From positions 985 through 64,984 of the forward strand of contig JACPMX010000016.1 of the NCBI GenBank assembly GCA_016185755.1: DNA of 64,000 nucleotides, in the 5' to 3' direction. Position numbers and translations under genes: made by a program. Positions 4,302 through 57,116 of this stretch are shown piece by piece; the first letter of the stretch is position 1, and the number at the start of each line of letters is the position of its first letter. The stretch comes from Candidatus Woesearchaeota archaeon. Its GTDB lineage: Archaea > Nanobdellota > Nanobdellia > Woesearchaeales > GW2011-AR4. Below the pieces are notes generated by a model. That model saw only the letters and a list, made by a program, of their open reading frames with translations, did no database searches and had not been told where the DNA came from.

Positions 4302-4362
4302 ATCAGCAAACAGGATTCCGCACTGCTTACATCTTGAATAAAAATACATTAAAATAGAAACC

Positions 4363-4370
4363 TTTATATA
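4363..4370 (+). promoter_or_regulatory. TATA-like box (TTTATATA) upstream of the wHTH/PK-like gene
   Basis: AT-rich octamer about 45 nt upstream of the ATG at 4414. It resembles archaeal TATA boxes; the TSS is unknown. Confidence 0.3.
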
Positions 4371-4376
4371 CTAATA

Positions 4377-4409
4377 TTATTCACTTTTTTATTATAATTA
4401 TTCACTTTT
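4377..4409 (+). promoter_or_regulatory. Direct repeat TTATTCACTTTT x2 (4377-4388 and 4398-4409; 21-bp spacing) just upstream of the ATG at 4414. It is a candidate operator.
   Basis: Two exact 12-mers on the same face of the helix between the TATA-like box and the start codon of a gene encoding a DNA-binding (wHTH) protein. Confidence 0.35.
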
Positions 4410-4413: not shown

Positions 4414-5826
4414 ATGAGCAACAAATCCAGAGTCTTTGAGTTCCTGTACAGGAACAGCGGCAGCAGGTACAATATCAACCAGATCTCAAGGCTGACTGGC
4501 ATAAGCGTGGGAAGCGCCTTCAAGATCCTGAAAAATCTCGAAAAGGACAACTATGCAAACGCAGAGAAAAGAAACAATTCATTATTATACCAAATCAACC
4601 AAAACGGCCAAACAAAAGATGCTTTTGAGGATATTGAGGAGGAAAAAAGAAGCAAAAACCTGAAGAAAACAAAAATTATATGCACCCTGGGGAAATCTTC
4701 CGAAAGCGGGCCCCTGATTGGGAAATTAATTGAGAAGGGGATGGATGCTGCAAAGATAGACTCCTCCTTTTATGATGAAAAAGGCTCAGCAGGGATAATC
4801 AAAAAAATAAGGGAGATATCGGACCAGATACCAATAATTCTTGACATTTCAAAAAACAGCGAGATAAAGCCATGGGCAAGGGCTGCTATGGAGAACGACA
4901 TTGATTTTATCATAGTCTCAATAAAGAATGCAGATGATATAAGGAGAATAAACCGGCTCCTTGGCTACAGCGACATGAAGCAGGTCATCGGAGAAAAAAT
5001 CAAGGTGCTTGCGCGCCTGGTGGCAGAAAACCTGGGGAACCACAGGGAAATAATAGAAGAAGCTTATGGAGTTGTGGTGGACCGAGACTCGCTTGTAAAG
5101 GGCAAAAGATATGAGATGCTTCCTTTAATGCAGAAGATGATAATAGAAGAATGCAACAAGCAGGGCAAGCCCGCTATAATTTCCGGGCAGGTGCTAAAAT
5201 CAATGGCCGGCAAAAACTTCCCGGAGGCAACTGAAGTTTACAGCATAACCAACATGGTTCTTGACGGGGCTTCCTGCATAATGCTTTCCGGCGAAACCGG
5301 AGCGGGAAATTACCCGGAAGAATCCGTGGCTGCATTATCCAGGATTATCAAGGGGGTGGAGTCAGGCCTGTCAGAAAATTACATTGGGGCAATCCAGGAG
5401 GATTTTGTGCATTCCATAGGAAAAGCGGTATTAGAGGTTGAAAAAAACGCCAATATAGATGCCATACTAATCCTGACGTCTGGAGGCTATTCTGCAAGAA
5501 TGATATCCGGCAGAAGATTAAAATGCAAAGTCATAGCCGCGACATCCAGCAGGAAAATATCCAGGCAGCTCAATATATTGTGGGGAATAAGCCCGCTGCT
5601 TATCAAAGGCAACCTTGAGGACATATCCAGCCGGGAGAAAAAAGAGGCTGTAACCAATTCCCTGAAAAAAGGATTCATAAAAAAGAGCGACCGGATTGCC
5701 ATAGTAGCCTCAGTTTTTCACAGCAAGTCCAAGATAACAAATCTGCTGGAGATACACAAAGTTAACGAGTTTTTGGATTATCTAGATGGCAAGAGCAATG
5801 GCAGGCTAATCACAGAGGTGCGATAA
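4414..5826 (+). CDS. Winged-HTH domain fused to a pyruvate-kinase-like TIM barrel lacking the B (lid) domain; C-terminal PK-like domain present
   Basis: The N-terminal 60 aa resemble MarR/TrmB-like wHTH (ISRLTGISVGSAFKILKNLEKDNY). KIICTLG...ILDISKNSEIKP parallels PK KIVCTIGP...ILLDTKGPEIRT, and LDGASCIMLSGETGAGNYPEESV parallels PK DGTDAVMLSGETAKGKYP. RLNFSHG is replaced by KIDSSFY, and the sequence jumps from the TKGPEIR-equivalent straight to the IDFI block, so the lid is missing. Confidence 0.55.
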   Translation: MSNKSRVFEFLYRNSGSRYNINQISRLTGISVGSAFKILKNLEKDNYANAEKRNNSLLYQINQNGQTKDAFEDIEEEKRSKNLKKTKIICTLGKSSESGPLIGKLIEKGMDAAKIDSSFYDEKGSAGIIKKIREISDQIPIILDISKNSEIKPWARAAMENDIDFIIVSIKNADDIRRINRLLGYSDMKQVIGEKIKVLARLVAENLGNHREIIEEAYGVVVDRDSLVKGKRYEMLPLMQKMIIEECNKQGKPAIISGQVLKSMAGKNFPEATEVYSITNMVLDGASCIMLSGETGAGNYPEESVAALSRIIKGVESGLSENYIGAIQEDFVHSIGKAVLEVEKNANIDAILILTSGGYSARMISGRRLKCKVIAATSSRKISRQLNILWGISPLLIKGNLEDISSREKKEAVTNSLKKGFIKKSDRIAIVASVFHSKSKITNLLEIHKVNEFLDYLDGKSNGRLITEVR

Positions 5827-5827
5827 A

Positions 5828-6898
5828 ATGGCATATTTCCATGAAGCAGCGCTGATAGACAGCACAGATGACATGCAGTTCAAGATATACAGCAGCACGC
5901 ACCCGAAAGGATTTATCATAGCAAAGCCAAAATACATACCAAGCGAGCTGCTTAATCTGGCCGGACTGAAGAAAAGATTTCTTTTCAGCAGGTGCATGTA
6001 CCGCTTCAACCTTTTTAATGATAAGAAGATAGTGGGGAAAAACCTGGAAGAACTAAGGAAAAAATTCCCGGAATGCGTCTATGAATGCAGGAAGCACAAA
6101 AACTGGTTTCTTGGAGTCCCGGAAAAAAAAGTGAAAAAATTCTACGATACTAGAAAAGGACTGCAGGAACTGCTGAAAGTGCCTGTGGAGGACCTTGACA
6201 GCTACTTAAAGGCTGTGAGAAAAATGATAGACATCCTTGCCGAAGCCGGAATAAAATCAAAAGACCTCGGGATTAGCCATTCAACTTTGCTGGGGAACTA
6301 TACCCCGGGAAAATCCGACATAGACATATTGATTTTCGGCATGGGCAACGGCTGGAAAGCTGTTAAGCACCTGGAAAAATGCAAAGATCCTTCATTAAGC
6401 TGGAAATCCAAGGAAGGCTGGGCCAAATATTACAAAGACAGGGTTGTTTCCAAGGTTTACACTGAAAAGGAATATGTCGCGAACATGGTCAGGAAAAAAG
6501 ACGACGGATTTATTGACGGCAACGTATTCTCGCTCTTCTGCATTGAAAATGGGAATGAATCGTGGTATGACTGGGAAGAGGAGCACGAGCCTCTTGCAAC
6601 AGTGAAAATAAAAGCCAAAGTAAAGAATGCATATTATTCCATTGTAAGGCCCGGGTATTACGGGCTGGAAAACAGCAAAGTGCTCGAAGGCTATAAAGAT
6701 GTCCCTATAAAGCGCATTGTCACATGGGCAAGGCCCTTCAGCCTGCAGGCAAAAGAAAACGAGGAAATAGAAGCATGCGGCCTGCTTGAGAAAGTCAAGG
6801 CTGAAGACGGCGAGTTTTACCAGGTAGTGATAGGCTACTTTGATACATATACGACCGGCAGGGGTGAAAAAGAATACCTAAAAGCGTGTATAGACTAA
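5828..6898 (+). CDS. Pol-beta superfamily nucleotidyltransferase-fold protein (paralog A, intact hG[GS]...DhDh-like motif)
   Basis: LGISHSTLLGNYTPGKSDIDILIFG fits the minimal NTase / Cid1-like signature hG[GS]x9-13 DxD. The 356-aa protein has conserved N- and C-terminal extra domains (C-terminus YQVVIGYFDTY). Confidence 0.5.
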   Translation: MAYFHEAALIDSTDDMQFKIYSSTHPKGFIIAKPKYIPSELLNLAGLKKRFLFSRCMYRFNLFNDKKIVGKNLEELRKKFPECVYECRKHKNWFLGVPEKKVKKFYDTRKGLQELLKVPVEDLDSYLKAVRKMIDILAEAGIKSKDLGISHSTLLGNYTPGKSDIDILIFGMGNGWKAVKHLEKCKDPSLSWKSKEGWAKYYKDRVVSKVYTEKEYVANMVRKKDDGFIDGNVFSLFCIENGNESWYDWEEEHEPLATVKIKAKVKNAYYSIVRPGYYGLENSKVLEGYKDVPIKRIVTWARPFSLQAKENEEIEACGLLEKVKAEDGEFYQVVIGYFDTYTTGRGEKEYLKACID

Positions 6899-6899: not shown

Positions 6900-7988
6900 A
6901 TGCACTTCTACGAATCATCAATAATAACAACAAAAGACGGGCTCCATTGCCAGGTTTACGGCAACGAGCATCCTGAAGGCAGGATACTAGTCAAGCCGAA
7001 GTACATACCGACTGACAGGATATCATGCGATTCCCTGCCTTACAGGTTCATCACCGGCCGGAAGATGAACAGGCTGAACCTCTGGATAGGCCAAAGCAAG
7101 CTTAAGAAATACTTTGATGATTTTGCCAAAGCATATCCCCGATATATATTCAAAAGCCCTGTCCATGAAAAAAGCCCCTTGTTTTTTGCCGTGCCCAAAG
7201 AATGCATTGAAAAAACTTATTCACCAAGGGAAGGGCTTGCAGAGCTCATGAGCATGCCTACAAGCCAGATGGACGACCATCTTAAGGCTGTCTTCGAGTT
7301 AATGTCCTTTCTGCTCACAAGCGGCCTTAAACTGGAGGATTTCGGCATTACCTACTCGACTTTGATGGGCCATTATTCCTCATACAAATCAGACATCAAC
7401 ATTGTTGTCTATGGAAAAAAGAAGTTCTGGCACCTGATGAAATTCCTGGAAAAAACCGGCAATAAGGAGCTGAGGTGGAAGACCTATGAGGAATGGGGGG
7501 AATTCTATAAGAAAAGGAACAGGCACATCATACACAAAAAGGAGAAATACATAGAAGACATGCACAGGAAGAGATCGGAAGGCTTCTTTAAAGGCATACT
7601 GTTTGTAATATTTGCAGTTGAAAACAAAGATGAAACATGGTTCAAATGGGGCGATGAAAAATATAAGAGAATAGGGGCAGCCAAATTTGAAGCTTTTGTA
7701 AAAGAAAATAAAGACTCAGTCGTAAGGCCCGGATGCTATATCATTTCCGATTCCAATTTCATAGGCGGGGATAGTTCATGCAGGGGAATACAAATAAGCA
7801 AAGCCGTCTTTTACTCAAGAGACTACTGCATGCTTGCATATCCGGGCGAGAAAATAGAGATAAGCGGGGTTGTCGAGGAAGTTGCCCGGAAATCGGGCGA
7901 AAAATATTACAGGGTAGTCGTTGGCTACTTTGACTCTTACCTAAGCGGAAGAAGAGATCAAGAATACATAAAAGTTACTGATGATTAA
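6900..7988 (+). CDS. Pol-beta nucleotidyltransferase-fold protein (paralog B; second carboxylate replaced, SDINIV)
   Basis: Colinear with 5828..6898 (KPKYIP, HLKAV, G-I-[ST]-x-STL-G-x-Y, C-terminal YRVVVGYFDSY), about 30-35% identity by eye. Motif is GITYSTLMGHYSSYKSDINIVVYG, with D to N at the second metal ligand. Separated from paralog A by 1 nt. Confidence 0.5.
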   Translation: MHFYESSIITTKDGLHCQVYGNEHPEGRILVKPKYIPTDRISCDSLPYRFITGRKMNRLNLWIGQSKLKKYFDDFAKAYPRYIFKSPVHEKSPLFFAVPKECIEKTYSPREGLAELMSMPTSQMDDHLKAVFELMSFLLTSGLKLEDFGITYSTLMGHYSSYKSDINIVVYGKKKFWHLMKFLEKTGNKELRWKTYEEWGEFYKKRNRHIIHKKEKYIEDMHRKRSEGFFKGILFVIFAVENKDETWFKWGDEKYKRIGAAKFEAFVKENKDSVVRPGCYIISDSNFIGGDSSCRGIQISKAVFYSRDYCMLAYPGEKIEISGVVEEVARKSGEKYYRVVVGYFDSYLSGRRDQEYIKVTDD

Positions 7989-8610
7989 GATGAGCAAAAG
8001 CGAGATTAAAAAACTGCTTGACGAAGATGCAAGCCTTAAGGATGGCTGCAATCTATGCAATGAATCTAAATTCACATCAGGATACGATACAGGATACGGA
8101 ATAATCGTCTACAAGAACGGAACTTTAAAGAACGGCTGGTTCGCAACCCTGTCACCAAAAACCGGCGGGGACCCGGAACACGATTTCACAGTCCAGCTGA
8201 TGCCATGCCTGCATTTGACACATTTCTCACAGATAGCCCCGCATAAGGGCATGATGGAGAATTATGGTGTTGCATTTTCAAGAATTTGCATGGCAATCTC
8301 AGCTGTTTTAATGCAGGAAGAAGGGCTGAAGGCCGGCACTGAAGAAAAAAAGCTGTCCATGCCTTTGGCGACATACGGAAAGAGCACAACATGGAAAAAA
8401 AAGAAGGAGCATCTTCACTTAAAGATTTTCCCGTTTCGCGGGAATATCGGGCAGCCGTATACTGTGGACAGCTCTTTCGGCAAAAAAGAGATTTTTATGG
8501 ACAGCAAGAAGACGGAATTCGTGAAAATGGCGCCTGTGAAGAAAAAGAAACTAAGCAGAGCCAGACTTGGCTACCTGGCAAAAAGGCTGATATCCCTGCT
8601 TGAAAGATAA
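7981..8610 (+). CDS. Atypical HIT-superfamily protein (histidine triad HLHLK variant with about 50-aa insertion)
   Basis: N-terminal CxxC (DGCNLCNE) and ...EHLHLKIFP in the position of the HIT motif H-phi-H-phi-H-phi-phi (third His replaced by Lys). Loosely like GalT/Ap4A-phosphorylase branch proteins. The start may be ATG 7981 (overlapping upstream stop) or ATG 7990. Confidence 0.4.
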   Translation: MIKMSKSEIKKLLDEDASLKDGCNLCNESKFTSGYDTGYGIIVYKNGTLKNGWFATLSPKTGGDPEHDFTVQLMPCLHLTHFSQIAPHKGMMENYGVAFSRICMAISAVLMQEEGLKAGTEEKKLSMPLATYGKSTTWKKKKEHLHLKIFPFRGNIGQPYTVDSSFGKKEIFMDSKKTEFVKMAPVKKKKLSRARLGYLAKRLISLLER

Positions 8611-8611
8611 T

Positions 8612-9490
8612 ATGGCAAAAAAAATAGACTTGCAGTCCCACACTACAGCTTCAGACGGCGAACTGGCTCCCGAAGAGCTGGTTGACCTGGCAATAGAAAA
8701 AGGGCTGAGCGCAATCGCAATAACAGACCACGATTCCGTGGCATCGCTGAAGGCTGCAATTGAGCATTCCAAAGGCAAAAATATTGAAATAGTTACAGGC
8801 GTAGAATTAAGCTGCGACGATCCCATACTAAATTACGACAAAATAGACGTGCTAGGCCTTTTTATAGACCCAAAAAACAAAAAGCTGATGGAATCAATTA
8901 AAAAAATAAACAGGAAAAGGGATGATAACAAAAAGAGGATAATAGGGAAATTAAAAAGCCTCGGCTACGAAATTGAGTATGAAGAAGTCAAAAAAACAGC
9001 CAAAGGGACTTTCGGCAGGCCCCATATTGCAAAATACCTGCTGAAAAAATACCCCTCGGAATTCAGCTCTGTTGCCGACGTTTTCGACAAGCTGATAGGC
9101 ACAGGCAAAAAAGCATTTGTGGGGACCCATGACAGGGTTTCCATCAAGGATGCCGTAAAGACAATAAAAGGCGCTGGCGGCATTTCCATACTGGCTCATC
9201 CGGGAATATACACCAAGGAAGATTCAATCAGGATTATTGATTATTTTATTGACAAAGGAGGCGAGGGAATTGAGACATATTATCCCTACCACATCATATG
9301 CCCGGAGCTTAATGTTGATAAAGAAGGCAATGAAAAAATAATAGGCTTCTACAAAAAAATCGCAAAATCAAAAAGAATACTTGAAAGCGGCGGCAACGAC
9401 CACCACGGCAATTACAGGTTTACTTTGGGAGCTGTTGAAATCCCATACGAAGTTTTGGAAAACCTTAGGAACAGGAAACCTGCCCTGTAG
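8612..9490 (+). CDS. PHP-domain metal-dependent phosphoesterase (TrpH/YciV-like)
   Basis: KIDLQSHTTASDGELAPEELV...AIAITDHDSV is the canonical PHP N-terminal His/Asp motif. Further His-rich motifs (ILAHPG, GGNDHHG) follow. Confidence 0.75.
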   Translation: MAKKIDLQSHTTASDGELAPEELVDLAIEKGLSAIAITDHDSVASLKAAIEHSKGKNIEIVTGVELSCDDPILNYDKIDVLGLFIDPKNKKLMESIKKINRKRDDNKKRIIGKLKSLGYEIEYEEVKKTAKGTFGRPHIAKYLLKKYPSEFSSVADVFDKLIGTGKKAFVGTHDRVSIKDAVKTIKGAGGISILAHPGIYTKEDSIRIIDYFIDKGGEGIETYYPYHIICPELNVDKEGNEKIIGFYKKIAKSKRILESGGNDHHGNYRFTLGAVEIPYEVLENLRNRKPAL

Positions 9491-9499: not shown

Positions 9500-10036
9500 A
9501 TGGCAAAATCAGCATGGACTATCTGGTTTGTAGGGCTGCACGGCTCTGGAAAATCAACCATATCAAAAAAAACAGCTGAGATTCTGAGGAAAAAAAACGT
9601 GCCTGTAGTAATTCTTGACGGCGATGAATTAAGGGAAGCAATATCATCCGACCTGGGCTACAGCATAGAAGACAGGGACGAGCACATGAAAAGGACAGCA
9701 GACTTGTGCCGCATAATTTCAGGAAACGGAATACTCTGCATAGCATGCGTTGCATCCCCAACTGAAAAATCCAGGGAATACGCCAAAAAAATGCTCGGAA
9801 AAATAATCATAGTCTATGCCAAATGCCCCCTTGAAGTATGCGAAAAAAGGGATGTCAAGGGGCATTACAGGAAGGCAAGGAACAAAGAAAAGGGATTTGA
9901 AGATTTTTTAGGAATATCCTTGCCTTTCGAAGAGCCAAAGAATGCAGATATAATCCTCAACACTGATAAGGAAAGCGCTGAAGATTCTGTGAGCAGGCTT
10001 CTTAAAAAATTGGCGGAAATGAAGGCAATTGAATGA
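9500..10036 (+). CDS. cysC: Adenylylsulfate (APS) kinase
   Basis: P-loop GLHGSGKST, LDGDELR (CysC LDGDNVR), and KCPLEVCEKRDVKGHYRKAR (CysC CPLEVCEARDPKGLYKKAR). 178 aa. Confidence 0.85.
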   Translation: MAKSAWTIWFVGLHGSGKSTISKKTAEILRKKNVPVVILDGDELREAISSDLGYSIEDRDEHMKRTADLCRIISGNGILCIACVASPTEKSREYAKKMLGKIIIVYAKCPLEVCEKRDVKGHYRKARNKEKGFEDFLGISLPFEEPKNADIILNTDKESAEDSVSRLLKKLAEMKAIE

Positions 10037-10075: not shown

Positions 10076-11068
10076 TTAAACTATCCTTGCTTTCCTTAAA
10101 ATATCCTTGATCTGGCTGATGTTTAGGTAACTGGCGTTTTTTGAATTGCTGTCCATATCAGCTTTCCGTTTTTTTGCCATATCAGAAACAGAAGGATGCC
10201 TTATTACATACATATTTCCCATGTCCTCTGAATAAACTGATTCCTCCTGCGTCATTAAAGACTCGTGCATCTTTTCGCCGAATCTGGCCCCGATAAACCT
10301 GAGCTTTATATCTTTAGGCTCATGGCCGTGCTTAGGGGCAAGCTCTTCTATCATGGCATGTGCAAGATCAATGACTTTCAATGCACTCATCTTGAGCACG
10401 AATATCTCCCCGCTCCTGGTGACTTCGGCGGCCTTCAAGACCAAGCTTATCGCATCAGACTTTGTCATGAAGTAACGGCTCATCTCTTTGTCAGTTATGG
10501 TCAACGGGCCCCCATTTTCAATCTGCTTCCTGAATATCGGTATGACAGAACCAACCGAATCCAGCACATTTCCGAACCTTACGCAGCAGAATTTAGTATC
10601 TGCATTGCTTATTGCAGTGTCTATTATCACCTTTTCGCTAAGCAGCTTTGTGGCCCCCATTGTATTGATTGGGTTAACCGCCTTGTCTGTGGAGATTCCT
10701 ATAAACTTTTCAACATTGTTGTCTATGGAAGCTGAAATCAAATTTTCAGTTCCAACGATATTGGTGCTTACAGCTTCAAAAGGGTTGTACTCGCATAAAG
10801 AAACATGCTTCAGGGCTGCAGCGTGGAATATGATATGAGCCCCCTTTACTGCCCTTTGGACCCTGTTCCTGTCCCTGATGTCACCTATAAGCAGCCTTAT
10901 CCTGTCAGTTGCCAGCTCCTGCCCCAGATGGAACAGGTTTGACTCATTATTGTCAAAAACCCTGATTTTCTCCGGATTATACTTCAGCAACTGCTTTACT
11001 ATCTCGCTGCCGATTGAGCCGCACCCGCCTGTCACCAGTATATCTTTTCCTTCAAAGACGCCTTTCAT
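10076..11068 (-). CDS. UDP-GlcNAc 4,6-dehydratase (CapD/PseB/LegB family polysaccharide biosynthesis protein)
   Basis: ILVTGGCGSIGSEI Rossmann motif, extended SDR. Gene order with DegT, acetyltransferase, NeuC, NeuB, NeuA. Confidence 0.85.
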   Translation of the reverse strand: MKGVFEGKDILVTGGCGSIGSEIVKQLLKYNPEKIRVFDNNESNLFHLGQELATDRIRLLIGDIRDRNRVQRAVKGAHIIFHAAALKHVSLCEYNPFEAVSTNIVGTENLISASIDNNVEKFIGISTDKAVNPINTMGATKLLSEKVIIDTAISNADTKFCCVRFGNVLDSVGSVIPIFRKQIENGGPLTITDKEMSRYFMTKSDAISLVLKAAEVTRSGEIFVLKMSALKVIDLAHAMIEELAPKHGHEPKDIKLRFIGARFGEKMHESLMTQEESVYSEDMGNMYVIRHPSVSDMAKKRKADMDSNSKNASYLNISQIKDILRKARIV

Positions 11069-12174
11069 TTTAACCTCCTTAGGATTTTTTTGAGAGAATT
11101 TACAACTGTATGCATATCTTTTTCCTTAATCTGCTCGTAAAAAGGCAAGATCATTATCGTCCTGCTCAGCTTTTCAGCCACCGGAAAATCACCTTCTTTG
11201 CAGCCAAGACTTTCCCTGTAAAACGGCTGCAGGTGAATGCAGGGATGAAAATACGCCTTGCTCTGTATCCCCATGGCGTTCAATTCGCTTATGGCCCTGT
11301 CCCTTATCTTTTCGCTTACCATTACAGGAAAAACAAACCATGAATGCTCATTGCCTTTTCTGATTTTTGGCAGCGTTACGCCATCGATTCCCTTTAATTC
11401 ATCAAGATAGGCATTTGCAAGCTCCTTTCTTTTTTTAATAAAGCCCGGCAATTTTTCAAGCTGCTCTACCCCAATGGCGGCATTTATCTCGTCCATCCTG
11501 TAATTATAGCCAATCCGCTGGTGGGTAAGCCACTGCATGTTATCCGATCTTCCCTGATTCCTGTAGCTTTTGCACAGTGCGCTTGTTTTTTCATAGTTTG
11601 TAACAATCATGCCTCCTTCAGCTGTTGTCATCTGCTTGTTTGGGTAGAATGCAAAAACTCCCGCATCCCCCATTGTTCCGGTATTTTTTCCCTTATAGGT
11701 AGCCAGTATGCTTTCGCATGCATCCTCTACGACTTTCAGCTTGTTTTCCCTTGCTGCCTTTAGTATAGGATCCATATCGCAGCTTTGGCCGAAGACATGC
11801 ACCGGCAAAATGAACCTTGTCTTTGCATTTATTTTTTCCTTTATCAAATCAGGATTAATGTTAAAAGTGTCCTCTTCCACATCGACAAAAACAGGCTTTG
11901 CATTCTCAAACAAGGCGCAGTTTGCAGAGGCAACAAAAGAAAAAGGAGTTGTTATCACCTCATCTCCGGGATTTATGCCCAAAGACTTTAATGCCAGGTG
12001 CAGCCCTGAAGTGCCTGAGTTGACAGCAATGGCATATTTTGACCCCATAAGCCTGGAGAATTTTTCCTCAAATTCTTCCAATTTAGGGCCTAAGCTCAAT
12101 ATTCCTGATTTCAGCACTTTTACTACTGAATTGATCTCTTCTTTTCCTATTGTCGGCCTTGATAATGGTATCAT
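11065..12174 (-). CDS. DegT/DnrJ/EryC1-type PLP-dependent sugar aminotransferase (PseC/LegC-like)
   Basis: Full-length match to the family: VNSGTSGLHLAL, ...PVHVFGQ..D.D, and the FYPNKQMTTAEGGMIVT lysine region. Confidence 0.85.
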   Translation of the reverse strand: MIPLSRPTIGKEEINSVVKVLKSGILSLGPKLEEFEEKFSRLMGSKYAIAVNSGTSGLHLALKSLGINPGDEVITTPFSFVASANCALFENAKPVFVDVEEDTFNINPDLIKEKINAKTRFILPVHVFGQSCDMDPILKAARENKLKVVEDACESILATYKGKNTGTMGDAGVFAFYPNKQMTTAEGGMIVTNYEKTSALCKSYRNQGRSDNMQWLTHQRIGYNYRMDEINAAIGVEQLEKLPGFIKKRKELANAYLDELKGIDGVTLPKIRKGNEHSWFVFPVMVSEKIRDRAISELNAMGIQSKAYFHPCIHLQPFYRESLGCKEGDFPVAEKLSRTIMILPFYEQIKEKDMHTVVNSLKKILRRLK

Positions 12175-12184
12175 TTTAGTGTTT

Positions 12185-12589
12185 TCAATTTTTTATTTTC
12201 TTCACAACTTTAGCCGGGATGCCATAAGCAACAACATTATCCTGGATGTCCCTGTTGACAAACGAAAAAGCCCCTATAACTGAATTTTTCCCTATCGAAA
12301 CCCCGGGCATTATGACAGAATGGCTGCCTATTTTACAGTTTTCCTTTAATGTCACCATTCCTTTCTTGCCGTCTATTGTGCTTATGCTGTATATCGAGCA
12401 GTGGCTTCCTACCTGCACACCATCCTGTATTTCCACGCCGTGCTTCGCGTTTATGTATGTAAATGCGCCTATATCAGTTTTCCTGCCCAGTTTCAGGCCG
12501 CCTTTATTCCGGACCAGCCAGCTGTATTTTGTCATTTTTCCTTCCCTGATTTCCGGGAATTTCCAGCCCTTAAACCTTTCTTCTTCCAT
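12185..12589 (-). CDS. Hexapeptide-repeat (left-handed beta-helix) N-acetyltransferase (PseH/LegH-like)
   Basis: Repeating [LIV]G.... hexads (IGSHSVIMPGVSIGKNSVIGAFSFV). Start set at the internal Met to avoid overlap with the upstream gene, so the start is uncertain. Confidence 0.65.
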   Translation of the reverse strand: MEEERFKGWKFPEIREGKMTKYSWLVRNKGGLKLGRKTDIGAFTYINAKHGVEIQDGVQVGSHCSIYSISTIDGKKGMVTLKENCKIGSHSVIMPGVSIGKNSVIGAFSFVNRDIQDNVVAYGIPAKVVKKIKN

Positions 12590-12593
12590 TTTT

Positions 12594-13733
12594 CTAGTAT
12601 GATATCCTCTTCTGCAGGAGCTTCTCATCAATTTTTATGCTTTTTAGGCATTCAAGCACCTTCTGGAAAGTATCTCCGCTGCCGAAAGGATTCTTCAGGC
12701 TTTTTATTCTCTTCTGAAAACCTTTTGATAAAGCGAGCTTTATGGATTTTTTAATATCTTCCTTCTGATATCCGCAGTCAATGACATTTCCTGCCCTTTC
12801 CCTTCCTTTTTGCCTTGAGCCTATATTGACGGCAGGAAGCCTGAAATATGGGGCCTCTATTATTGCGCTGCTGGAGTTCCCAACAATTACATCAGCAAAG
12901 CCCATAATGCCTATGAATTCTACGTAATCCAGATTTTTCCTTATCCTGAAGCCCGGATTTGAGGCAAATTCGCCAATGGCCTTTATAATTCCACTGTTTC
13001 CGGGGTCTGCATTAGGATAAACAACAAGGCACTGGGCGTCAATTTCAGCTACCGCCTTTAGCGTGTTGAGTATTTGGCTGTATGAGCTGTTTTCCTCGAG
13101 CGTTACAGGATGCTGCAAAACCAGCACAAGAGGCTTTTCATTGCTTAATTCAAATTTTTTGTATAATTCTCTTTTTGAAATCTTTTTCATCTCCCTTATG
13201 TTGCTTACGGAAGGGGAACCGACAACACGTATCCTAAAAGAATCTTCCCCCATTTTTTTTATCCTTTCTGCAGATTTTTCCGTGGCGCAGAAATGCAGAT
13301 GGCTCAGCTTTGTTATTGCATGCCTTGCCGCCTCGTCAACGGTCGAGGTCACTTCGCCGCCATGGAAATGGGCAACAGGTATGGAAAGGTAAGAGCCTGC
13401 AATAGCCCCTCCTAAGGCCTCTATCCTGTCGCCTATGACAAAAATAAAGTCCGGCTTTATCTCGCTAAGTTTTTTTGTCAATTTTTCTATAAAATTACCC
13501 AAAAAAAACAGCATAGATGCCTTGTTGTCTTTCTCGAAAACAGAATTTATCTCTACTGTGCCCAATCCGCTTTTTTTGACCTCATCTATGCTATGGCCGA
13601 ATTTTTCCATCATATGCATGCCTGTTGCAATTACAGTTATCTTAAAGCCTTTAGCCTTATCCAATTTTTTCAGCAGTCCCGACATTATCCCGAAATCCGC
13701 CCTTGTTCCCGATATATAAACAATTTTTTTCAT
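12594..13733 (-). CDS. neuC: UDP-N-acetylglucosamine 2-epimerase, hydrolysing type (NeuC/LegG-like)
   Basis: MKKIVYISGTRADFGIM...HGGE..S..DE..RHAITKLSHLHF is characteristic of the NeuC/WecB epimerase fold. Sits immediately upstream of NeuB. Confidence 0.75.
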   Translation of the reverse strand: MKKIVYISGTRADFGIMSGLLKKLDKAKGFKITVIATGMHMMEKFGHSIDEVKKSGLGTVEINSVFEKDNKASMLFFLGNFIEKLTKKLSEIKPDFIFVIGDRIEALGGAIAGSYLSIPVAHFHGGEVTSTVDEAARHAITKLSHLHFCATEKSAERIKKMGEDSFRIRVVGSPSVSNIREMKKISKRELYKKFELSNEKPLVLVLQHPVTLEENSSYSQILNTLKAVAEIDAQCLVVYPNADPGNSGIIKAIGEFASNPGFRIRKNLDYVEFIGIMGFADVIVGNSSSAIIEAPYFRLPAVNIGSRQKGRERAGNVIDCGYQKEDIKKSIKLALSKGFQKRIKSLKNPFGSGDTFQKVLECLKSIKIDEKLLQKRISY

Positions 13734-14800
13734 TCTATCTTTTCCAAACTTAATAATTCATCTTTCATAATTTGGGCATTCGCTTTTTTCCCTATTATCG
13801 AGTAGATATCTTTAGGCTTCAATCCAATTCCAGGCCTTTTTATTGCAAGATTTCCAAAGCTTAGTTTCTCGCCTTTTGCTATGTTCCTTGCAGCTACTAT
13901 GCTTTTTCTTGCTACTTTGGCATTTTCTATTTCGCTTTTTGTTGGCTTTTTTTCAGCACTCCCCAAAACTCCCCCATCAAGCTTGATTTTCTCATAATCC
14001 TTGTTTTTTATTGCTGTTATCATTTCTTTTAATTCATCAGGCTCCAAAGAAGCTTTGTGGTCAGGCCCTTCCATGCCCCTGTCAAGGGTAAAATGCTTCT
14101 CTATCAGGACCGCGCCTAGCTTAACAGCCATCTGCGGAACATCAATCCCGAGCGTGTGGTCAGAATAGCCCACCAGGCTATCTAATTCCTTCTGCATGGT
14201 CTGCATGGCCCTTAAGTTCACTTCATTTTTTGGGCATGGGTAACTGGTTGTGCAATGCAGCATGATAACTTCCCTGTTGCCTGCTTCATATATTTCACTC
14301 AATGCCTCTTTTACCTCTTCCAAGGTAGACATCCCTGTCCCCAAAATCATGGGCTTGAGCTTTTTTGCAGCCTTTTTCAAAAAAGGGATATTGGTAAGGT
14401 CTCCGGAGCCTATTTTGAATGCAGGCATCATCTTGTCCAAAAAATCTATTGCATCATTTGTATGGGGGGTCGATAAAAAGATAATATCTTTCTCATCACA
14501 ATATTTTTTTAATGCTTTGAAATTGTTGTAATCCAATTCTAATCTCTTCAGCATCTGCAACTGAGTTTCACCTCCTCCAATATTCTCTTCCTGGTATTTC
14601 GCCATTGGAGTTTTTTCAGCAATCAAATCCTCTGATTTAAAAGTCTGGAACTTTACAGCATCAGCTCCCGCATCTTTTGCTGCATCCACAAGCTTTTTTG
14701 CCAATTCCAAAGAGCCGTTGTGGTTCACTCCCGCTTCCGCTATTATGAAGCAAGGCTCATTTTCCCCGATTCCTCTGCCCCCTATGTTTATCCGCATCAT
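13730..14800 (-). CDS. neuB: N-acylneuraminate (nonulosonic acid) synthase, NeuB/LegI/PseI family, with C-terminal SAF domain
   Basis: CFIIAEAGVNHNGSLELAKKLVDAAKDAGADAVKFQTF is the NeuB signature. The antifreeze-like C-terminus is present. Confidence 0.85.
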   Translation of the reverse strand: MMRINIGGRGIGENEPCFIIAEAGVNHNGSLELAKKLVDAAKDAGADAVKFQTFKSEDLIAEKTPMAKYQEENIGGGETQLQMLKRLELDYNNFKALKKYCDEKDIIFLSTPHTNDAIDFLDKMMPAFKIGSGDLTNIPFLKKAAKKLKPMILGTGMSTLEEVKEALSEIYEAGNREVIMLHCTTSYPCPKNEVNLRAMQTMQKELDSLVGYSDHTLGIDVPQMAVKLGAVLIEKHFTLDRGMEGPDHKASLEPDELKEMITAIKNKDYEKIKLDGGVLGSAEKKPTKSEIENAKVARKSIVAARNIAKGEKLSFGNLAIKRPGIGLKPKDIYSIIGKKANAQIMKDELLSLEKIE

Positions 14801-15510
14801 TTGTGCCGCTGAATTATATTCCTGTTTATTTCCATCAGCTTGGGATTCTCAAGAAGAAGTTTAATGATGCTTTTCAGCGGAAAGATATTTTTATCGCCTA
14901 AGCTGTCAAAAATCCTCCTTACAAGCTCCAAATCCTCGCTGAAATCCACGGTCAGCCTTATTTCCGGATGCCTTAACTCTTCTTCAACCTCCAGGTCTAT
15001 CTTTTTCAGGCTGGACTCCCTTTCAAATAGGTTCCCCCATATTTCCGTGTCTTTCTCTTTTTTGGTTTCTATAATTTTCTTAAGAGCATCAATCTTGATT
15101 CCATAGGAAAAAGCGCCCAGCGGAAGATTTTTGCAGGTTATAAAATCAGCATCGGATTCCCTGAAACTGGTGATTATCCTGTCAATATAAGCAGGATCAA
15201 CCAGGGGGTTGTCTGCAGTAACGCTGACTATATGGCTTGCCTTGTATTTTTTTGCTGCATTGAACAGCCTGTCGAGCACGTCATCCTCGCTGCCCCTGAA
15301 CCATTTTATGCCCTCTTTCTCGGCAACATCTATCAATACATCATCCTGGGGATTTGTTGATGTGCAGAGGATTATCCCATCGGCATTTTTTGACAGCTTC
15401 AGCCTGTCTATCTGGTGCTCTATCATAGGCCTTCCTTTTATGTACCTCAGCACTTTTAACGGGAGCCTTTCCGATTTCATCCTTACTGTTATGGTTATTG
15501 CCGCTTTCAT
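14797..15510 (-). CDS. neuA: CMP-nonulosonic acid synthetase (acylneuraminate cytidylyltransferase, NeuA/LegF/PseF)
   Basis: ITVRMKSERLPLKVL...PMIEHQIDRL matches the CMP-sugar cytidylyltransferase N-terminus (GT-A-like nucleotidyltransferase). Confidence 0.8.
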   Translation of the reverse strand: MKAAITITVRMKSERLPLKVLRYIKGRPMIEHQIDRLKLSKNADGIILCTSTNPQDDVLIDVAEKEGIKWFRGSEDDVLDRLFNAAKKYKASHIVSVTADNPLVDPAYIDRIITSFRESDADFITCKNLPLGAFSYGIKIDALKKIIETKKEKDTEIWGNLFERESSLKKIDLEVEEELRHPEIRLTVDFSEDLELVRRIFDSLGDKNIFPLKSIIKLLLENPKLMEINRNIIQRHK

Positions 15511-16547
15511 TTTTCCACATTCCTCCAGCTTATAAGCGAATATTTCTTAATAGGCTCTTTTGCCTTTTTGCCGATTAAGCTAAAGAATTCCCTCTGCTCT
15601 ATGGTATTTTCCTTTTTTGTTCTCCTGAAAGCCAGGTCTTTTTTTCCTATGGAGCTTCCTTTTTTTATGTCACCTGCAGCGACTATTGTAAACTTCATCG
15701 GACCTTTCCTCGCGTATATGTTCTCGTAATCGCTGATTTCAAATGAGCCGTCGCCTTTGGCCTTGTTTAGAATACCCATCTTGCCCCTTATTTCCCTCAG
15801 GCTTTCTGCAGACACCGCAGCGTCGTAATCAGTTCTTTTTTTCCCTGCTTCCAGGGCAACGTGCTTTTCAATTATATTCGGACCTGCCATGAATCCGGCC
15901 AGTGTCATCAGTTCATTGTTTTTGTCGTCCCAGGCAGTATGGTCTGCGTATCCCACAGGAAGACCGAATTTTTCCTTGATTTTTTGCATCCTTCTGAAAT
16001 TTATATATTCATATCTCGTGGGGTAGTTCTGGAAACCGTGCATGAGAAGAATGTCTTTCCTGTCCAGGAATTTAACAGCGAATTCTATGTCTTTGATACC
16101 TGAGCCGCCAATGCCAAGAATTATCGGAACCTTTATGCCTTTCACCCTTTCAAGCATTTCTATGTTGTTCAAGGCCACAGCATGAATTTCAACAGCATCG
16201 ACCAAATCAACATTCTCCTTTACAAAATCAATAGAGTACAGGTCATCAGCCAAGACTATATTGTCAAAACCGGAGCTTTTTGCCTTTTCCAATATCATGA
16301 TCCACTGGCTTTTTGAAAACATGGATTTTTTGATTATGCTGTAAGCGGGATGGTCTTTTGTGAAATAAGAGTCTATGTCGATCATTATGTGGAATTTTAC
16401 CCCATCGCAGCTTTTTTTTGATGCAAGACTGTGGATCAGCCTGTTCATGTAGGAAAAGTTCCCCTCGTGTATATATGCGGTTTCCCCAATTATGTAAGGA
16501 CAGTTCTCATCTTCCATTGCTTCCTTGAACCTGCTTTTTTTTGCCAT
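15507..16547 (-). CDS. Second, divergent NeuB-family (sialic-acid-synthase-like) paralog with SAF domain
   Basis: PYIIGETAYIHEG... parallels NeuB IIAEAGVNHNG. HGFQNYPT and a C-terminal SAF-like segment are present. It is more divergent than 13730..14800. Confidence 0.55.
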   Translation of the reverse strand: MAKKSRFKEAMEDENCPYIIGETAYIHEGNFSYMNRLIHSLASKKSCDGVKFHIMIDIDSYFTKDHPAYSIIKKSMFSKSQWIMILEKAKSSGFDNIVLADDLYSIDFVKENVDLVDAVEIHAVALNNIEMLERVKGIKVPIILGIGGSGIKDIEFAVKFLDRKDILLMHGFQNYPTRYEYINFRRMQKIKEKFGLPVGYADHTAWDDKNNELMTLAGFMAGPNIIEKHVALEAGKKRTDYDAAVSAESLREIRGKMGILNKAKGDGSFEISDYENIYARKGPMKFTIVAAGDIKKGSSIGKKDLAFRRTKKENTIEQREFFSLIGKKAKEPIKKYSLISWRNVEK

Positions 16548-17027
16548 TTATTTATGCCCCATGACCTTGAGCATGTCATAATCCTCAAACTTGTAAACGC
16601 ATGTTGTCAGCGACTCAGACCAGTCGTTTATTATTTTGCTGAATTTGTTCCGGATCGCCCGCGTTATATTCCCAAGGTCCATGCCGTCCCTGGCAATCAC
16701 TACAATGGAAAAGTCCCATTCACCGGAAACAGACATTACTTCAGCTACATTTGGGTGCCCCTTAAGATAGTCTATGAACTCCCTTATGTCGCTATCAGAG
16801 TAATTGTGCGCCTTAATCTTAATGTCAACTATGTTGTTAAACCCAAAATTCCTCGGCCTCAGCTGTATCTTCGGGAAAAAAATATTGTTTTCCTTCATCT
16901 TGATTATCCTCTTTTTAGTCGAATCCACGGACAACTTGACTTTTTTTGCAATGCCTGTCAGGGATTTCCTGCAGTCTGCCTGCAGCATGTTAAGAATAAT
17001 GCAGTCCTTTTCATCAAGCTTTATCAT
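16548..17027 (-). CDS. Lrp/AsnC-family transcriptional regulator
   Basis: LDEKDCIILNMLQADCRKSLTGIAKKVKLSVDSTKKRIIKMKENNI is HTH_AsnC, followed by a C-terminal RAM domain. 159 aa. Confidence 0.8.
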   Translation of the reverse strand: MIKLDEKDCIILNMLQADCRKSLTGIAKKVKLSVDSTKKRIIKMKENNIFFPKIQLRPRNFGFNNIVDIKIKAHNYSDSDIREFIDYLKGHPNVAEVMSVSGEWDFSIVVIARDGMDLGNITRAIRNKFSKIINDWSESLTTCVYKFEDYDMLKVMGHK

Positions 17028-17237
17028 TCTTCTTAAAAATACGATTTTATTTATAAATATTTCTATTTTTTAAGATATATATTTAAATATAGCTTAAAAT
17101 TTAAGCTAATACATGGCAATCTCCTGCGGAAATTAAGACATTATGTGAATTATGAATAACGCGCCCTTCGCAGCCCAGGAGCCATTTTAAAGCGCATAAG
17201 ATTTTTAAACTCACATCCAATTCTTGGCTTCATAAAA
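17028..17237. promoter_or_regulatory. Divergent AT-rich promoter region between the Lrp/AsnC gene and the wbuZ-like operon. It contains TTTATTTATAAATAT, TATA-like.
   Basis: 210-bp intergenic region with several TATA-like AT tracts, flanked by divergently oriented gene strings. Confidence 0.3.
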
Positions 17238-18008
17238 ATGGAGAAAATAAGGATAATAGCCAGGCTGGATGTCAAGGGCCCCAATGTCATCAAAGGGGTG
17301 AATCTCGAAGCCTTGAGGGTGGTTGGAAAGCCGGAAAAGATGGCTGAAGATTATTACAGGCAGGGGGCAGACGAGCTGATATACATAGACATTGTTGCAA
17401 GCCTTTATGGGAGGCAAAATCTCCTTAACATAGTGAACCTGACATCTGACAAGATATTCATACCATTCACTGTTGGCGGCGGGGTAAGGACTCTTGATGA
17501 CATAAGCCTGTTCTTAAAAGCAGGAGCAGACAAGGTGGCAATAAATACTGCAATAACCAAAAACCCGGATTTAATAACGAAAGCTTCAAGGATGTTCGGG
17601 TCGCAATGCATCGTTGCTTCTATAGAGGCAAAAAAGGCACCAGAAAATAAATGGGAGGCATACACTGAAAATGGAAGGGAAAAAACAGGCCTTGATGTGG
17701 TAAAATGGGCAAAGAAAGTGGAAAAACTCGGGGCAGGAGAGATACTCCTGACGTCCATAGACAAAGAAGGCACCAAAAAAGGATTTGATATCGAGCTCAT
17801 AAAGCAGGTTTCTGAAGCTGTTTCTGTCCCGTTGATCGTATGCGGCGGCGCAGGCAATGCCGGCCACATCGTTGAATGCATTGAAAGCGGAAACATCGAT
17901 GCAGTGGCAGTTTCCTCAATTCTTCATTACGGGACATCGACTATCGGCGAGATTAAGAATCACCTTGCCAAGAGTGGAATTAGCGTGAGAAAAAATGCAA
18001 AATTATGA
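17238..18008 (+). CDS. HisF-like cyclase subunit (imidazole glycerol phosphate synthase family) of the glycan-cluster WbuZ type
   Basis: RIIARLDVKG...VVGKPEKMAEDYYRQGADELIYIDI...GGGVRTLDD is the HisF (beta/alpha)8 signature. It is located in a sugar cluster next to the HisH-like gene and the PP-loop amidotransferase, not in a his operon. Confidence 0.8.
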   Translation: MEKIRIIARLDVKGPNVIKGVNLEALRVVGKPEKMAEDYYRQGADELIYIDIVASLYGRQNLLNIVNLTSDKIFIPFTVGGGVRTLDDISLFLKAGADKVAINTAITKNPDLITKASRMFGSQCIVASIEAKKAPENKWEAYTENGREKTGLDVVKWAKKVEKLGAGEILLTSIDKEGTKKGFDIELIKQVSEAVSVPLIVCGGAGNAGHIVECIESGNIDAVAVSSILHYGTSTIGEIKNHLAKSGISVRKNAKL

Positions 18009-18657
18009 AATTCCGGATGTAAGCATAATTGATTACGGAATAAACAATCTCAAGAGTGTAAACATTGCATTCCAAAGCATAGGAAGAACCGCGAAAATAA
18101 TTGACGCTCCCGAGGACGTACAATCGGCAAAATGCCTTGTATTGCCGGGGATAGGCGCATTTCACAGCGCCATGGAAAACCTCAGGAAAAAATCCCTGAC
18201 AGAGCCAATCAGGCAAAAAGTCAAAGACGGAACCCCAATTTTAGGGATATGCCTGGGGATGCAGCTGCTGTTCTCTGAAAGCGAGGAGTTCGGGCTGCAC
18301 AAGGGGCTCGGCCTGGTTCCGGGAAGAGTCATACCATTCAAATCGCCAAAGGAAATTAATATAAAGGGCTATAAAGTACCGCATATAGGCTGGAGCGAGC
18401 TGATATTCCAAAAAAACAGTGTCAAAAATACGCTGCTTGAGAACCTGCCGGAACAATGCGAGGTTTATTTTGTGCATTCATACTTCCCCAAGGCTGATGA
18501 TGCAGGCACTGTATTGGCGACTGCCAAATACGGCGGCCAGGAATTTTGCGCAATAGTCAAAAAAGGCAATATCACGGGAACCCAGTTTCACCCTGAGAAA
18601 AGCGGGGAAATAGGGCTGAGCATGCTAAGGACATTTTGCAATCAAAATTGCAGATGA
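17995..18657 (+). CDS. HisH-like class-I glutamine amidotransferase subunit (WbuY type)
   Basis: IIDYGINNLKSV...VLPGIGAF...GICLGMQLL (Cys nucleophile)...HSY...FHPEKS. Overlaps the upstream gene by 14 nt. Confidence 0.8.
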   Translation: MQNYEIPDVSIIDYGINNLKSVNIAFQSIGRTAKIIDAPEDVQSAKCLVLPGIGAFHSAMENLRKKSLTEPIRQKVKDGTPILGICLGMQLLFSESEEFGLHKGLGLVPGRVIPFKSPKEINIKGYKVPHIGWSELIFQKNSVKNTLLENLPEQCEVYFVHSYFPKADDAGTVLATAKYGGQEFCAIVKKGNITGTQFHPEKSGEIGLSMLRTFCNQNCR

Positions 18658-54141: not shown

Positions 54142-54142
54142 T

Positions 54143-56780: not shown

Positions 56781-56786
56781 TTTTAG

Positions 56787-57113: not shown

Positions 57114-57116
57114 TTT

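Follow-up and report, generated by a model that had tools for sequence, protein, structure and literature searches.

The DNA considered here, in the following termed the window, is a stretch of 64,000 nucleotides (nt) from contig JACPMX010000016.1 of a Candidatus Woesearchaeota genome. On its forward strand lies an operon of six genes, the first of which codes for a protein of 470 amino acids (aa) that combines an N-terminal winged helix-turn-helix (wHTH) domain with a pyruvate kinase (PK)-like barrel devoid of the B or lid domain, while the last encodes adenosine 5'-phosphosulfate (APS) kinase. A TATA-box-like element and two copies of a short repeat precede the operon (Table 1). At NCBI the same 470-aa sequence is filed as hypothetical protein HYX08_07030 from a Candidatus Woesearchaeota archaeon. 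An earlier note on this DNA had already described its gene as a fusion of a wHTH with a lid-less PK-like barrel and had offered two explanations, a transcription factor that senses metabolites by means of a PK scaffold or a phosphoenolpyruvate (PEP)-dependent or phosphotransfer enzyme of new specificity tethered to DNA. All sequences treated in the following stem from metagenome-assembled genomes (MAGs), and the whole analysis is computational.

Table 1. Features of the window and, in the last rows, a membrane protein gene of related loci. Positions are those of the window unless a locus is named.
Feature	Position	Strand	Remarks
wHTH-lid-less PK-like protein	4414-5826	+	470 aa, first of six operon genes; Candidatus Woesearchaeota
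wHTH domain, aa 1-62	4414-4599	+	HTH_24/MarR_2 matches to N-termini of the family, AlphaFold2 (AF2) topology
Long linker helix between wHTH and barrel, aa 63-84	4600-4665	+	AF2 helix 65-82
PK A-domain TIM barrel, active site decayed, aa 85-318	4666-5367	+	PF00224 in two stretches, alignment
Lid-deletion junction within barrel, ~aa 146-153	4849-4872	+	Alignment
PK C-terminal (allosteric effector) domain, aa 333-455	5410-5778	+	PF02887
Inverted half-site TTGAATAA (reverse complement of TTATTCAA)	4335-4342		~28 nt upstream of TATA box
Archaeal TATA-box-like element TTTATATA	4363-4370	+	Preceded by A-rich stretch resembling a B recognition element (BRE); putative promoter
Candidate operator repeat 1, ATTATTCACTTTT	4376-4388	+	Should cover part of the DNA directly ahead of the putative transcription start (near 4392-4394)
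Candidate operator repeat 2, ATTATTCACTTTT	4397-4409	+	Ends 4 nt ahead of ATG (4414)
T356, Pol-beta-type nucleotidyltransferase core and C-terminal OB fold	5828-6898	+	Second operon gene; DPANN protein
T362, paralogue of T356	6900-7988	+	BLASTP 35% identity, E 8e-86; D-I-N replaces D-I-D
T209, 209 aa	7981-8610	+	Invariant CxxC and H-x-H-x-K (sequence motifs)
PHP-domain phosphoesterase	8600-9490	+	Pfam PHP, E 5e-14; best family 3',5'-nucleoside bisphosphate (pAp) phosphatase
APS kinase (CysC)	9500-10036	+	Last operon gene; Pfam APS_kinase, E 4e-42; TIGR00455, 162.7 bits vs cutoff 138.7
Sulfatase/alkaline-phosphatase-superfamily protein, 572 aa	2583-4301	+	Directly upstream of the operon
Nonulosonic acid (pseudaminic/legionaminic-type) pathway	10076-18657	-	Complete-looking
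Lrp/AsnC regulator	16548-17027
HisF/HisH-like pair	17238-18657
Region of low G+C content	50000-64000		G+C 0.29-0.36 vs ~0.43 before
~272-aa membrane protein, locus L004	14293-15111
~272-aa membrane protein, locus L001	17414-18250
~272-aa membrane protein, locus L003	15676-16530
~272-aa membrane protein, locus L009	6681-7514
~272-aa membrane protein, locus L010	16479-17312

Domain Architecture and Predicted Fold

Among Pfam families, the PK barrel (PF00224, E 3e-37) matches the 470-aa protein in two stretches, aa ~84-152 and aa 156-305, the second of which corresponds to profile positions 183-328, while profile positions ~70-182, i.e., the lid, are left unmatched. The C-terminal PK domain (PF02887) is found at aa 334-448 with an E value of 1.2e-21. 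A phmmer search against the PDB returned PKs exclusively (best E 1.4e-46, 25-29% identity), again in two pieces that leave out ~105 residues of the B domain, and in an alignment with PKs ~100 residues are gone between the motifs LDIS and SEIKPW. The AF2 model, for which 74 sequences served as input (pLDDT 87.3, pTM 0.82), consists in this order of a winged helix with three helices and two strands, a long linker helix, the barrel and an alpha/beta C-domain. Foldseek comparison of the model with PK structures yielded E values of ~1e-31, and the best target-normalised TM-scores (~0.8) were obtained with PK chains without B domain, including an engineered B-deleted liver PK (7qdn). Pfam, the PDB search and the predicted structure thus all uphold the proposed fusion as well as the loss of the lid. 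As an enzyme the protein is not recognized by the family models: it scores 205.2 bits with the PK equivalog TIGR01064 of NCBIfam, for which the cutoff is 306.4, and stays below the cutoffs of the remaining PK models likewise.

With regard to the N-terminus, the wHTH assignment is weak when the single protein is considered, yet it is solid at the level of the family, where HTH_24 is matched by 27 of 28 N-termini and MarR_2 by 25 of 28 (best E 1.6e-8). In the AF2 model the domain comprises helices at aa 3-13, 21-28 and 32-44 followed by strands at aa 48-53 and 56-61, all with pLDDT values of 86-95. The recognition helix, approximately ISVGSAFKILK (aa 30-40), is nearly invariant in sequence. Dimerisation helices of the MarR type were not found in the model, as there are none N-terminal of the wHTH and the C-terminal side offers a single linker helix that leads into the PK barrel. 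Since this helical dimerisation module is absent, we regard the protein as a wHTH protein but not as a strict member of the MarR family, and dimerisation is presumed to occur via the PK interfaces.

The C-domain retains the phosphate-binding loop T355-S-G-G-Y-S-A-R362. It also contains a conserved basic loop, F435-H-S-K-S-K440, that aligns with the loop closing over the effector in allosterically activated PKs. Judging from the alignment and from established structural knowledge on PKs, the two loops would correspond to the PK effector site.

Family, Distribution and Origin

The same fusion recurs in ~42 clusters of lid-less homologs, which have lengths of 454-501 aa and share 51-72% identity with the query at 97-100% query coverage. 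A further eight clusters (P0043-P0050) rank between the lid-less family and ordinary PKs and carry an N-terminal wHTH plus a complete B domain. Seven of these lid-bearing wHTH-PKs are full-length with 559-573 aa, while P0048 is a fragment of 277 aa. Each named source of a wHTH-PK is a MAG from DPANN or from an unclassified archaeon, and the lid-less form occurs in DPANN archaea only. When 185,579 species genomes were scanned with a wHTH pattern, just 10 of them turned out to contain wHTH-PK genes.

A neighbour-joining tree based on 361 shared PK columns and 50 bootstrap replicates, in which a sample of best matches only represented the canonical PKs as outgroup, recovered in 50 of 50 replicates the monophyly of all wHTH-PKs, the monophyly of the lid-less family and a clade uniting the latter with group A of the lid-bearing proteins (P0043-45). 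As group A is not monophyletic on its own, the lid-less family nests within it. Both have an insertion of eight residues, GYxxxxxxVIG, in common. The simplest history suggested by these sequences is one fusion, then one deletion of the lid.

Two observations concern the taxonomic labels of the source contigs. One contig with a lid-bearing wHTH-PK (L013, PBQF01000086.1) is filed as 'Parcubacteria group bacterium', carries the typical pair of ATTCAC motifs described below and probably comes from an archaeon, having been binned by mistake with a bacterial MAG. The label 'uncultured Methanosarcinales' is attached to several other loci despite a DPANN-like gene content.

Decay of the Active Site and Distribution of Constraint

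Catalytic positions are numbered according to rabbit-muscle PK (M1) in the following, and their roles are those of established PK enzymology. In the 470-aa protein R72 is replaced by K114, N74 by D116, H77 by F119, T113 by I145, K269 by R201, E271 by V203, G294-D295 by D225-S226, T327 by G258 and E331 by K262, while R119 has been deleted together with the lid. The earlier note had correctly stated that KIDSSFY stands in place of the RLNFSHG motif and that the glutamate of MLESM is a lysine. Its lysine of the GKP motif is indeed present, but it is a general structural invariant of PKs and not the catalytic K269. The metal ligands that had been seen in 'AEN' and 'DRD' did not withstand alignment: neither motif falls on E271 or D295, the columns of which are occupied by Val203 and Ser226, and neither is conserved in the family.

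The same columns were counted in the alignment for 42 lid-less members, seven full-length lid-bearing fusions and 25 canonical PKs. R72, N74, K269, E271, D295 and T327 are intact in 25/25 canonical and 7/7 lid-bearing sequences. Among the lid-less members, on the other hand, R72 is retained in 21 and K269 in 23 of the 42, N74 has become Asp in 34, the E271 column is made up mainly of Gly (17), Glu (12) and Asp (8), and that of G294 contains N, D or S. The five commonest residues in the D295 column, Ser (13), Leu (10), Lys (6), Ile (3) and Arg (3), do not include Asp; T327 is Gly in 24, Ser in nine and still Thr in seven members; and R119 has been removed with the lid. Compensating conserved polar residues were looked for in the lid-less barrel and none were found; the conserved barrel residues are mostly those that are conserved across the compared PKs. 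Since members differ from one another in the catalytic columns, the family has not settled on any other active site.

All seven lid-bearing fusions retain R72, N74, S76, D112, R119, K269, E271, G294-D295, T327, S361 and E363. They have Lys at position 117 and Ile or Leu at position 113. Exchange of Glu117 for Lys renders PK independent of K+, and archaeal PKs commonly belong to this class; the E117K mutant of the rabbit-muscle enzyme (PDB 7r6y) was among the Foldseek matches. Because the full catalytic set is retained, the lid-bearing relatives are probably active PKs of the K+-independent type.

Constraint, measured as the mean pairwise identity per domain, is distributed in the lid-less family in a manner that is the inverse of normal PKs. 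The best-conserved parts are the C-domain (0.70) and the wHTH (0.66), and the barrel (0.49-0.55) is the fastest-evolving folded part; the linker segment, aa 63-84, reaches 0.43. The corresponding values are 0.44 for the wHTH, 0.60-0.62 for the barrel and 0.46 for the C-domain in lid-bearing fusions, and 0.53-0.64 for the barrel and 0.46 for the C-domain in canonical PKs, which have no wHTH. Positions conserved to at least 95% in the lid-less family number 108 and lie mostly in the wHTH and the C-domain. When the same pairs of genomes are compared, identity amounts to 52-57% for the PK-like protein and to 73-83% for its operon neighbours T356 and T362. Catalytic decay together with the shift of constraint to the wHTH and the C-domain points to a pseudoenzyme selected for its DNA-binding and allosteric domains. 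Judged by its residues, the lid-less protein looks like a pseudoenzyme that has lost PK activity, and not like a new phosphotransferase.

Promoter and Candidate Operator Sites

The TTATTCACTTTT repeats that had been reported upstream of the gene are present at 4376-4388 and 4397-4409. As ATTATTCACTTTT 13-mers they are exact copies of each other, are situated 21 bp apart and lie between the TATA box and the ATG. Exact TATTCACTTT occurs at two sites only in the 64-kb window, both in the wHTH-PK promoter, and TTATTCACTTT repeats are conserved across orthologous wHTH-PK promoters. We compared the upstream DNA (110 nt) of 14 wHTH-PK genes, seven lid-less and seven lid-bearing, the proteins of which are 35-57% identical to the query. 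A pair of ATTCAC motifs spaced by 20-21 bp is present in 12 of the 14 promoters, 11 times within 110 nt before the ATG and additionally in L013, where it precedes the assumed start by ~164 nt. In the window and ten other loci TTTATA(T/A)A is placed 17 nt (start to start) before the TTCAC of the first repeat. The two remaining promoters belong to lid-bearing genes of group B and contain sites in inverted orientation, L016 with GTGAATAATCATTCAC and L007 with TTGAATAATCATTCAC. An inverted copy, TGAAT[AG]A, lies upstream of the TATA box at a similar position in nine promoters (window, L001, L003, L004 and L008-L012); as evidence this half-site is weaker than the two direct repeats.

In 1.17 Mb of sequence the arrangement ATTCAC-N14-16-ATTCAC occurs 20 times, where ~0.4 occurrences are estimated by chance, and each of the 20 is located upstream of a gene with this type of wHTH. 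A role of ATTCAC as a general promoter element is rejected, as within these 1.17 Mb the paired form precedes genes with this wHTH only.

The same wHTH, including ISVGSAFKILK, is also fused to a minimal Pol-beta nucleotidyltransferase (FGS...DVDVLF) at 70 loci (L018-L087, e.g., L025 9989-10573) from 70 DPANN species genomes. The proteins mostly comprise ~194 aa, and eight of the open reading frames (ORFs) run off the contig end. ATTCAC/TGAAT half-sites are found between TATA and ATG in all of the 65 testable promoters of this family, the usual array being ATTCAT-N6-TGAAT-N4-ATTCAC. The wHTH is the sole feature that the two families share, and the same half-site is present in the promoters of both, which is the best argument at hand for binding of ATTCAC by the wHTH and for autoregulation in either family. 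The ~194-aa proteins themselves look, from their sequences and promoters, like widespread autoregulated DPANN regulators.

Archaeal repressors usually act on sites that lie downstream of the TATA box and ahead of the start codon. With the sites located between TATA and ATG, repression is the more likely direction, and the inverted site further upstream would leave room for looping or activation.

Comparison of wHTH-PK Loci

Throughout the compared loci the wHTH-PK gene heads an operon with sulfate-activation genes, with tight spacing (gaps of 1-10 nt or overlaps). The enzyme encoded next depends on the form of the protein. In all six lid-bearing loci with downstream sequence (L004, L005, L006, L007, L009 and L016) an ATP sulfurylase gene follows directly, frequently with overlap, and APS kinase comes next wherever the contig continues; that of L006 stops inside the sulfurylase gene. 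In all seven lid-less loci, T356-type genes are found directly after the wHTH-PK gene. Five of the seven (window, L001, L003, L008 and L010) have the complete series T356-T362-T209, after which come the genes for PHP and APS kinase. The lid-less wHTH-PK gene of L011 and L012 is succeeded by just one T356-like gene, the product of which is 40% identical to T356 as well as to T362; in L011 (10001-17291) this gene is followed by genes for a ProRS-like class II aminoacyl-tRNA synthetase, a PHP protein and two members of the sulfatase family. The synthetase may be either the housekeeping enzyme or a component of the pathway. APS kinase was not detected in the L011 and L012 stretches, and tblastn retrieved neither an ATP sulfurylase nor a second PK from the 64-kb window. 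At the same time as the lid was lost, the T proteins took the place of ATP sulfurylase.

T356, T362 and T209 fill the exact slot of ATP sulfurylase in the sister loci, and their conservation (62-83% identity) exceeds that of the PK-like gene. From sequence and position, it is possible that they constitute a non-homologous sulfate-activating system. T356 has 218 relatives, the named sources of which are MAGs from DPANN or unclassified archaea except for one partial 'Bathyarchaeota' entry; no Pfam family above threshold was found for it. T362 is probably inactive, as it has D-I-N instead of the nucleotidyltransferase motif D-I-D. A natural fusion of T362 with T209 exists (P0363). T209 has no PDB match by sequence or profile, and Pfam yields sub-threshold matches to DUF2806 only. 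A profile search among 1.84 billion representatives gave only 47 relatives of T209, and in the nine that were scanned, eight short ones and the T362-T209 fusion, no relevant Pfam family was present; a relative of known function was not detected. An assignment of T209 to the HIT superfamily, considered on account of its CxxC...HLHLKIFP motif, is unsupported, given the absence of a PDB match and an hhalign probability of 0.3% against human HINT1. The PHP gene product scores 151 bits with NCBIfam NF041577, below the cutoff of 400.

Genomic Surroundings

The operon sits in a surface-glycan island with genes for a flippase and the sulfatase-family protein upstream and for many glycosyltransferases downstream. 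The sulfatase family, which recurs in the L011-type operon, may be the missing sulfate-handling partner. The nonulosonic acid genes code for PseB-like and PseC-like proteins, a hexapeptide acetyltransferase, a NeuC-like epimerase, two NeuB paralogues and a CMP-sugar synthetase, and after them come an Lrp/AsnC regulator and a HisF/HisH-like pair. NeuB uses up PEP. After the sulfate-activation genes of both lid-bearing and lid-less loci, though not in the window, there is a gene for a conserved membrane protein of ~272 aa with weak resemblance to CDP-alcohol phosphatidyltransferases (Table 1), which from its sequence could be a transferase using the activated product. In the part of the window with low G+C content, a subtilase of 1441 aa is encoded beside large ORFs (546, 770 and 586 aa) that match no family; these are possibly surface proteins or a foreign island.

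A Probable Regulator Derived from Pyruvate Kinase and Its Alternatives

Sequence and context make it probable that the 470-aa protein is a transcription factor in which a catalytically dead PK acts as sensor and oligomerisation module and which autoregulates the sulfate-activation operon; DNA binding, whether it represses or activates, how it oligomerises and what ligand it senses are inferred. The first of the two explanations mentioned at the outset, a metabolite-sensing transcription factor on a PK scaffold, fits with catalytic decay in ~42 members, with the shift in conservation and with the operator-like motif conserved in orthologous promoters and in those of the paralogous wHTH family, while the second, a PEP-dependent or phosphotransfer enzyme of new specificity, is unsupported for the lid-less protein.

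According to the mechanism that we propose, an ancestral DPANN PK would have gained, at its N-terminus, a winged helix of the kind that these archaea possess in large numbers, and in one descendant lineage the B/lid domain would have been deleted and the catalytic residues would have drifted. The A/C scaffold, which forms dimers or tetramers in PKs, would display two or four wHTH domains. These would bind the ATTCAC half-sites, namely the two direct repeats two helical turns (21 bp) apart and the inverted copy ~44 bp upstream. Binding between TATA and ATG would, as is normal for such sites in archaea, prevent the pre-initiation complex or RNA polymerase from being recruited, and the protein would most likely repress its own six-gene operon (wHTH-PKL, T356, T362, T209, PHP phosphatase and APS kinase). 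The pocket in the C-domain would take up a phosphorylated or sulfated small molecule that sets the affinity for DNA. AMP, pAp, APS, 3'-phosphoadenosine 5'-phosphosulfate (PAPS) or a sugar phosphate are candidates, and the nucleotides of the pathway would be the natural choice, which is a guess.

Several observations speak against this interpretation. In the 470-aa protein alone the match to MarR_2/HTH_24 (aa 5-47, E ~3e-3) is below the Pfam gathering score. A basic residue, Lys or Arg, is present at the position of K269 in 28 of the 42 lid-less members, and E363 and S361 are kept in 31 and 34 of them, respectively; given this partial retention, the barrel may still contain a binding site, be it residual or altered. 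It is also conceivable that a different factor reads the repeats as elements of the promoter or of the 5' leader. Finally, the start of the next gene touches or overlaps the wHTH-PK gene and the state of the lid tracks the downstream enzymes perfectly. Co-variation and gene overlap hint at a role on the protein level, i.e., in a complex or in allosteric control of the pathway, besides or instead of control of transcription.

The last point leads to the alternative that survives best, although we consider it rather unlikely: the protein would be a non-catalytic regulatory or scaffold subunit that controls T356/T362/T209 and APS kinase, and the wHTH would serve protein contacts or have a minor role on DNA. 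The perfect dichotomy between ATP sulfurylase after six of six lid-bearing genes and T356-type genes after seven of seven lid-less ones agrees with this, as does the distance of neighbouring genes, which overlap or are 1-3 nt apart and suggest co-translation; furthermore, the PK fold is known as a natural platform for oligomerisation. Such a subunit, however, leaves unexplained why ATTCAC sites are present in its own promoter and in those of a second family that has only the wHTH in common with it, and the near invariance of the recognition helix likewise points to DNA. The two roles are not mutually exclusive and can coexist.

It is very improbable that the protein still works as an enzyme tethered to DNA, either as a PK without lid or, with a new specificity, in phosphotransfer or in the use of PEP. 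In favor of catalysis, the barrel has an intact fold that is modelled with confidence, the S-x-E-T motif is largely retained and the lid-bearing relatives possess the full catalytic set. In addition, ATP regeneration by PK and PEP relieves the inhibition of APS kinase by ADP in vitro: ADP would otherwise hold APS kinase in a dead-end complex, and PAPS synthesis in vitro is therefore supplemented with PK (PMC9885120). For a conserved active site, however, the differences among lid-less members in acid/base and metal-ligand positions are unexpected, R119 is lost along with whatever else the lid, as established for PK structures, adds to the nucleotide site, the barrel evolves fastest among the folded parts and the score with the PK equivalog (205 bits) is below its cutoff (306). 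A new specificity in particular is rejected for the lid-less family by the variable active-site columns and the lack of a compensating polar set. A decaying relic without a function of its own, i.e., a PK gene on its way out of a reduced genome, would fit the missing lid, the substituted catalytic residues and the reductive nature of DPANN genomes, for which orphan 'pyruvate kinases' lacking the preceding steps of glycolysis are on record (bioRxiv 10.64898/2026.05.13.725050), but is hardly credible in view of ~42 distinct, intact and full-length members at 51-72% identity, the 108 positions conserved to at least 95% and concentrated in wHTH and C-domain, the conserved operon position and promoter and the confidently predicted fold.

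Returning to a PK-derived transcription factor, an additional catalytic role is plausible for its lid-bearing ancestors. A more far-reaching and rather doubtful idea is that the loss of lid and catalysis was coupled to a swap of the pathway. A lid-bearing trigger enzyme would have combined regulation of Sat-CysC with ATP regeneration or removal of ADP for APS kinase; once T356/T362/T209, as a new system for the activation of sulfate or nucleotides, replaced ATP sulfurylase, PK catalysis would have become dispensable, and a pure sensor with PK fold would have been left. If this were true, the locus would hold the first transcription factor on a PK scaffold together with a non-homologous analogue of ATP sulfurylase.

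Comparison with Known Systems

PK itself (EC 2.7.1.40; e.g., 3t05 from S. aureus, 2e28 from G. stearothermophilus and human PKM2/PKL) is homologous in A-barrel and C-domain and shares the phosphate loop of the effector site. The 470-aa protein differs from the enzyme by the added wHTH, the missing lid, lost or variable catalytic residues and an equivalog score below cutoff, and its genomic setting is sulfate activation and glycan synthesis, not glycolysis. The lid-bearing wHTH-PKs (P0043-P0050, annotated 'pyruvate kinase') have the same wHTH, ATTCAC promoter sites and head position in a PAPS-type operon. They differ by keeping the lid and every catalytic residue and by ATP sulfurylase as the next gene instead of T356/T362/T209, and may be true 'trigger enzymes', i.e., active PK and regulator in one, tethered to DNA. 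Engineered B-domain-deleted human liver PK (7qdn) has the same A+C architecture (target-normalised TM-score 0.75). That protein was made artificially with crystallography and the study of ligands in mind, whereas the deletion in DPANN is natural, fixed in the family and combined with a wHTH.

Enzyme-derived regulators are established for other folds. GfcR from Haloferax volcanii and PurR from Gram-positive bacteria are HTH transcription factors derived from phosphoribosyltransferases and follow the same design, in which a DNA-binding domain is joined to an enzyme fold that has turned into a metabolite sensor and regulates a related pathway (PMC10838023). Their phosphoribosyltransferase fold bears no homology to the PK fold, and ligands and regulons are other ones, such that the relation is one of analogy and not of membership. 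On purely functional grounds, without homology, the 470-aa protein can be placed with such regulators, as it consists of a wHTH and a degraded enzyme fold, and the T-S-G-G-Y-S-A-R and F-H-S-K-S-K loops suggest that the pocket is retained.

In ROK repressors (Mlc/NagC) and in MocR/GabR an N-terminal wHTH likewise precedes a sensor with a sugar-kinase or aminotransferase fold, and catalysis has been lost in the repressors. The folds are unrelated to that of the 470-aa protein, and these regulators are bacterial and not from DPANN; we know of no member built on a PK scaffold. Literature searches retrieved nothing relevant on wHTH-PK fusions, DPANN PAPS operons or DNA-binding proteins resembling PK.

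Implications for Annotation and for DPANN Biology

The label 'pyruvate kinase' has been given at NCBI/JGI to lid-less (P0029, P0035) as well as to lid-bearing proteins (P0044, P0045). A survey of Nanobdellota was puzzled by orphan PK genes in the absence of the upstream glycolysis that would make PEP (bioRxiv 10.64898/2026.05.13.725050). Some of these orphan PK calls may be regulators of the kind described here and not indicate a capacity for substrate-level phosphorylation. The lid-less protein should not be counted as a glycolytic enzyme, and metabolic reconstructions should be corrected.

For the DPANN archaea, the loci indicate a conserved sulfate-activation (PAPS-type) module within surface-glycan islands and pinpoint three uncharacterised proteins at the position that ATP sulfurylase occupies in sister genomes. 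They also provide a candidate pair of regulator and operator, with ATTCAC as the half-site, for a group in which control of transcription is almost unknown, and ATTCAC also appears to serve the related wHTH-nucleotidyltransferase family, which is encoded in 70 species genomes or more. As far as literature searches show, the 470-aa protein would be the first transcription factor with a sensor module of PK fold. The living series from canonical PK via wHTH-PK with intact site to the lid-less pseudoenzyme allows the birth of a regulator to be reconstructed step by step.

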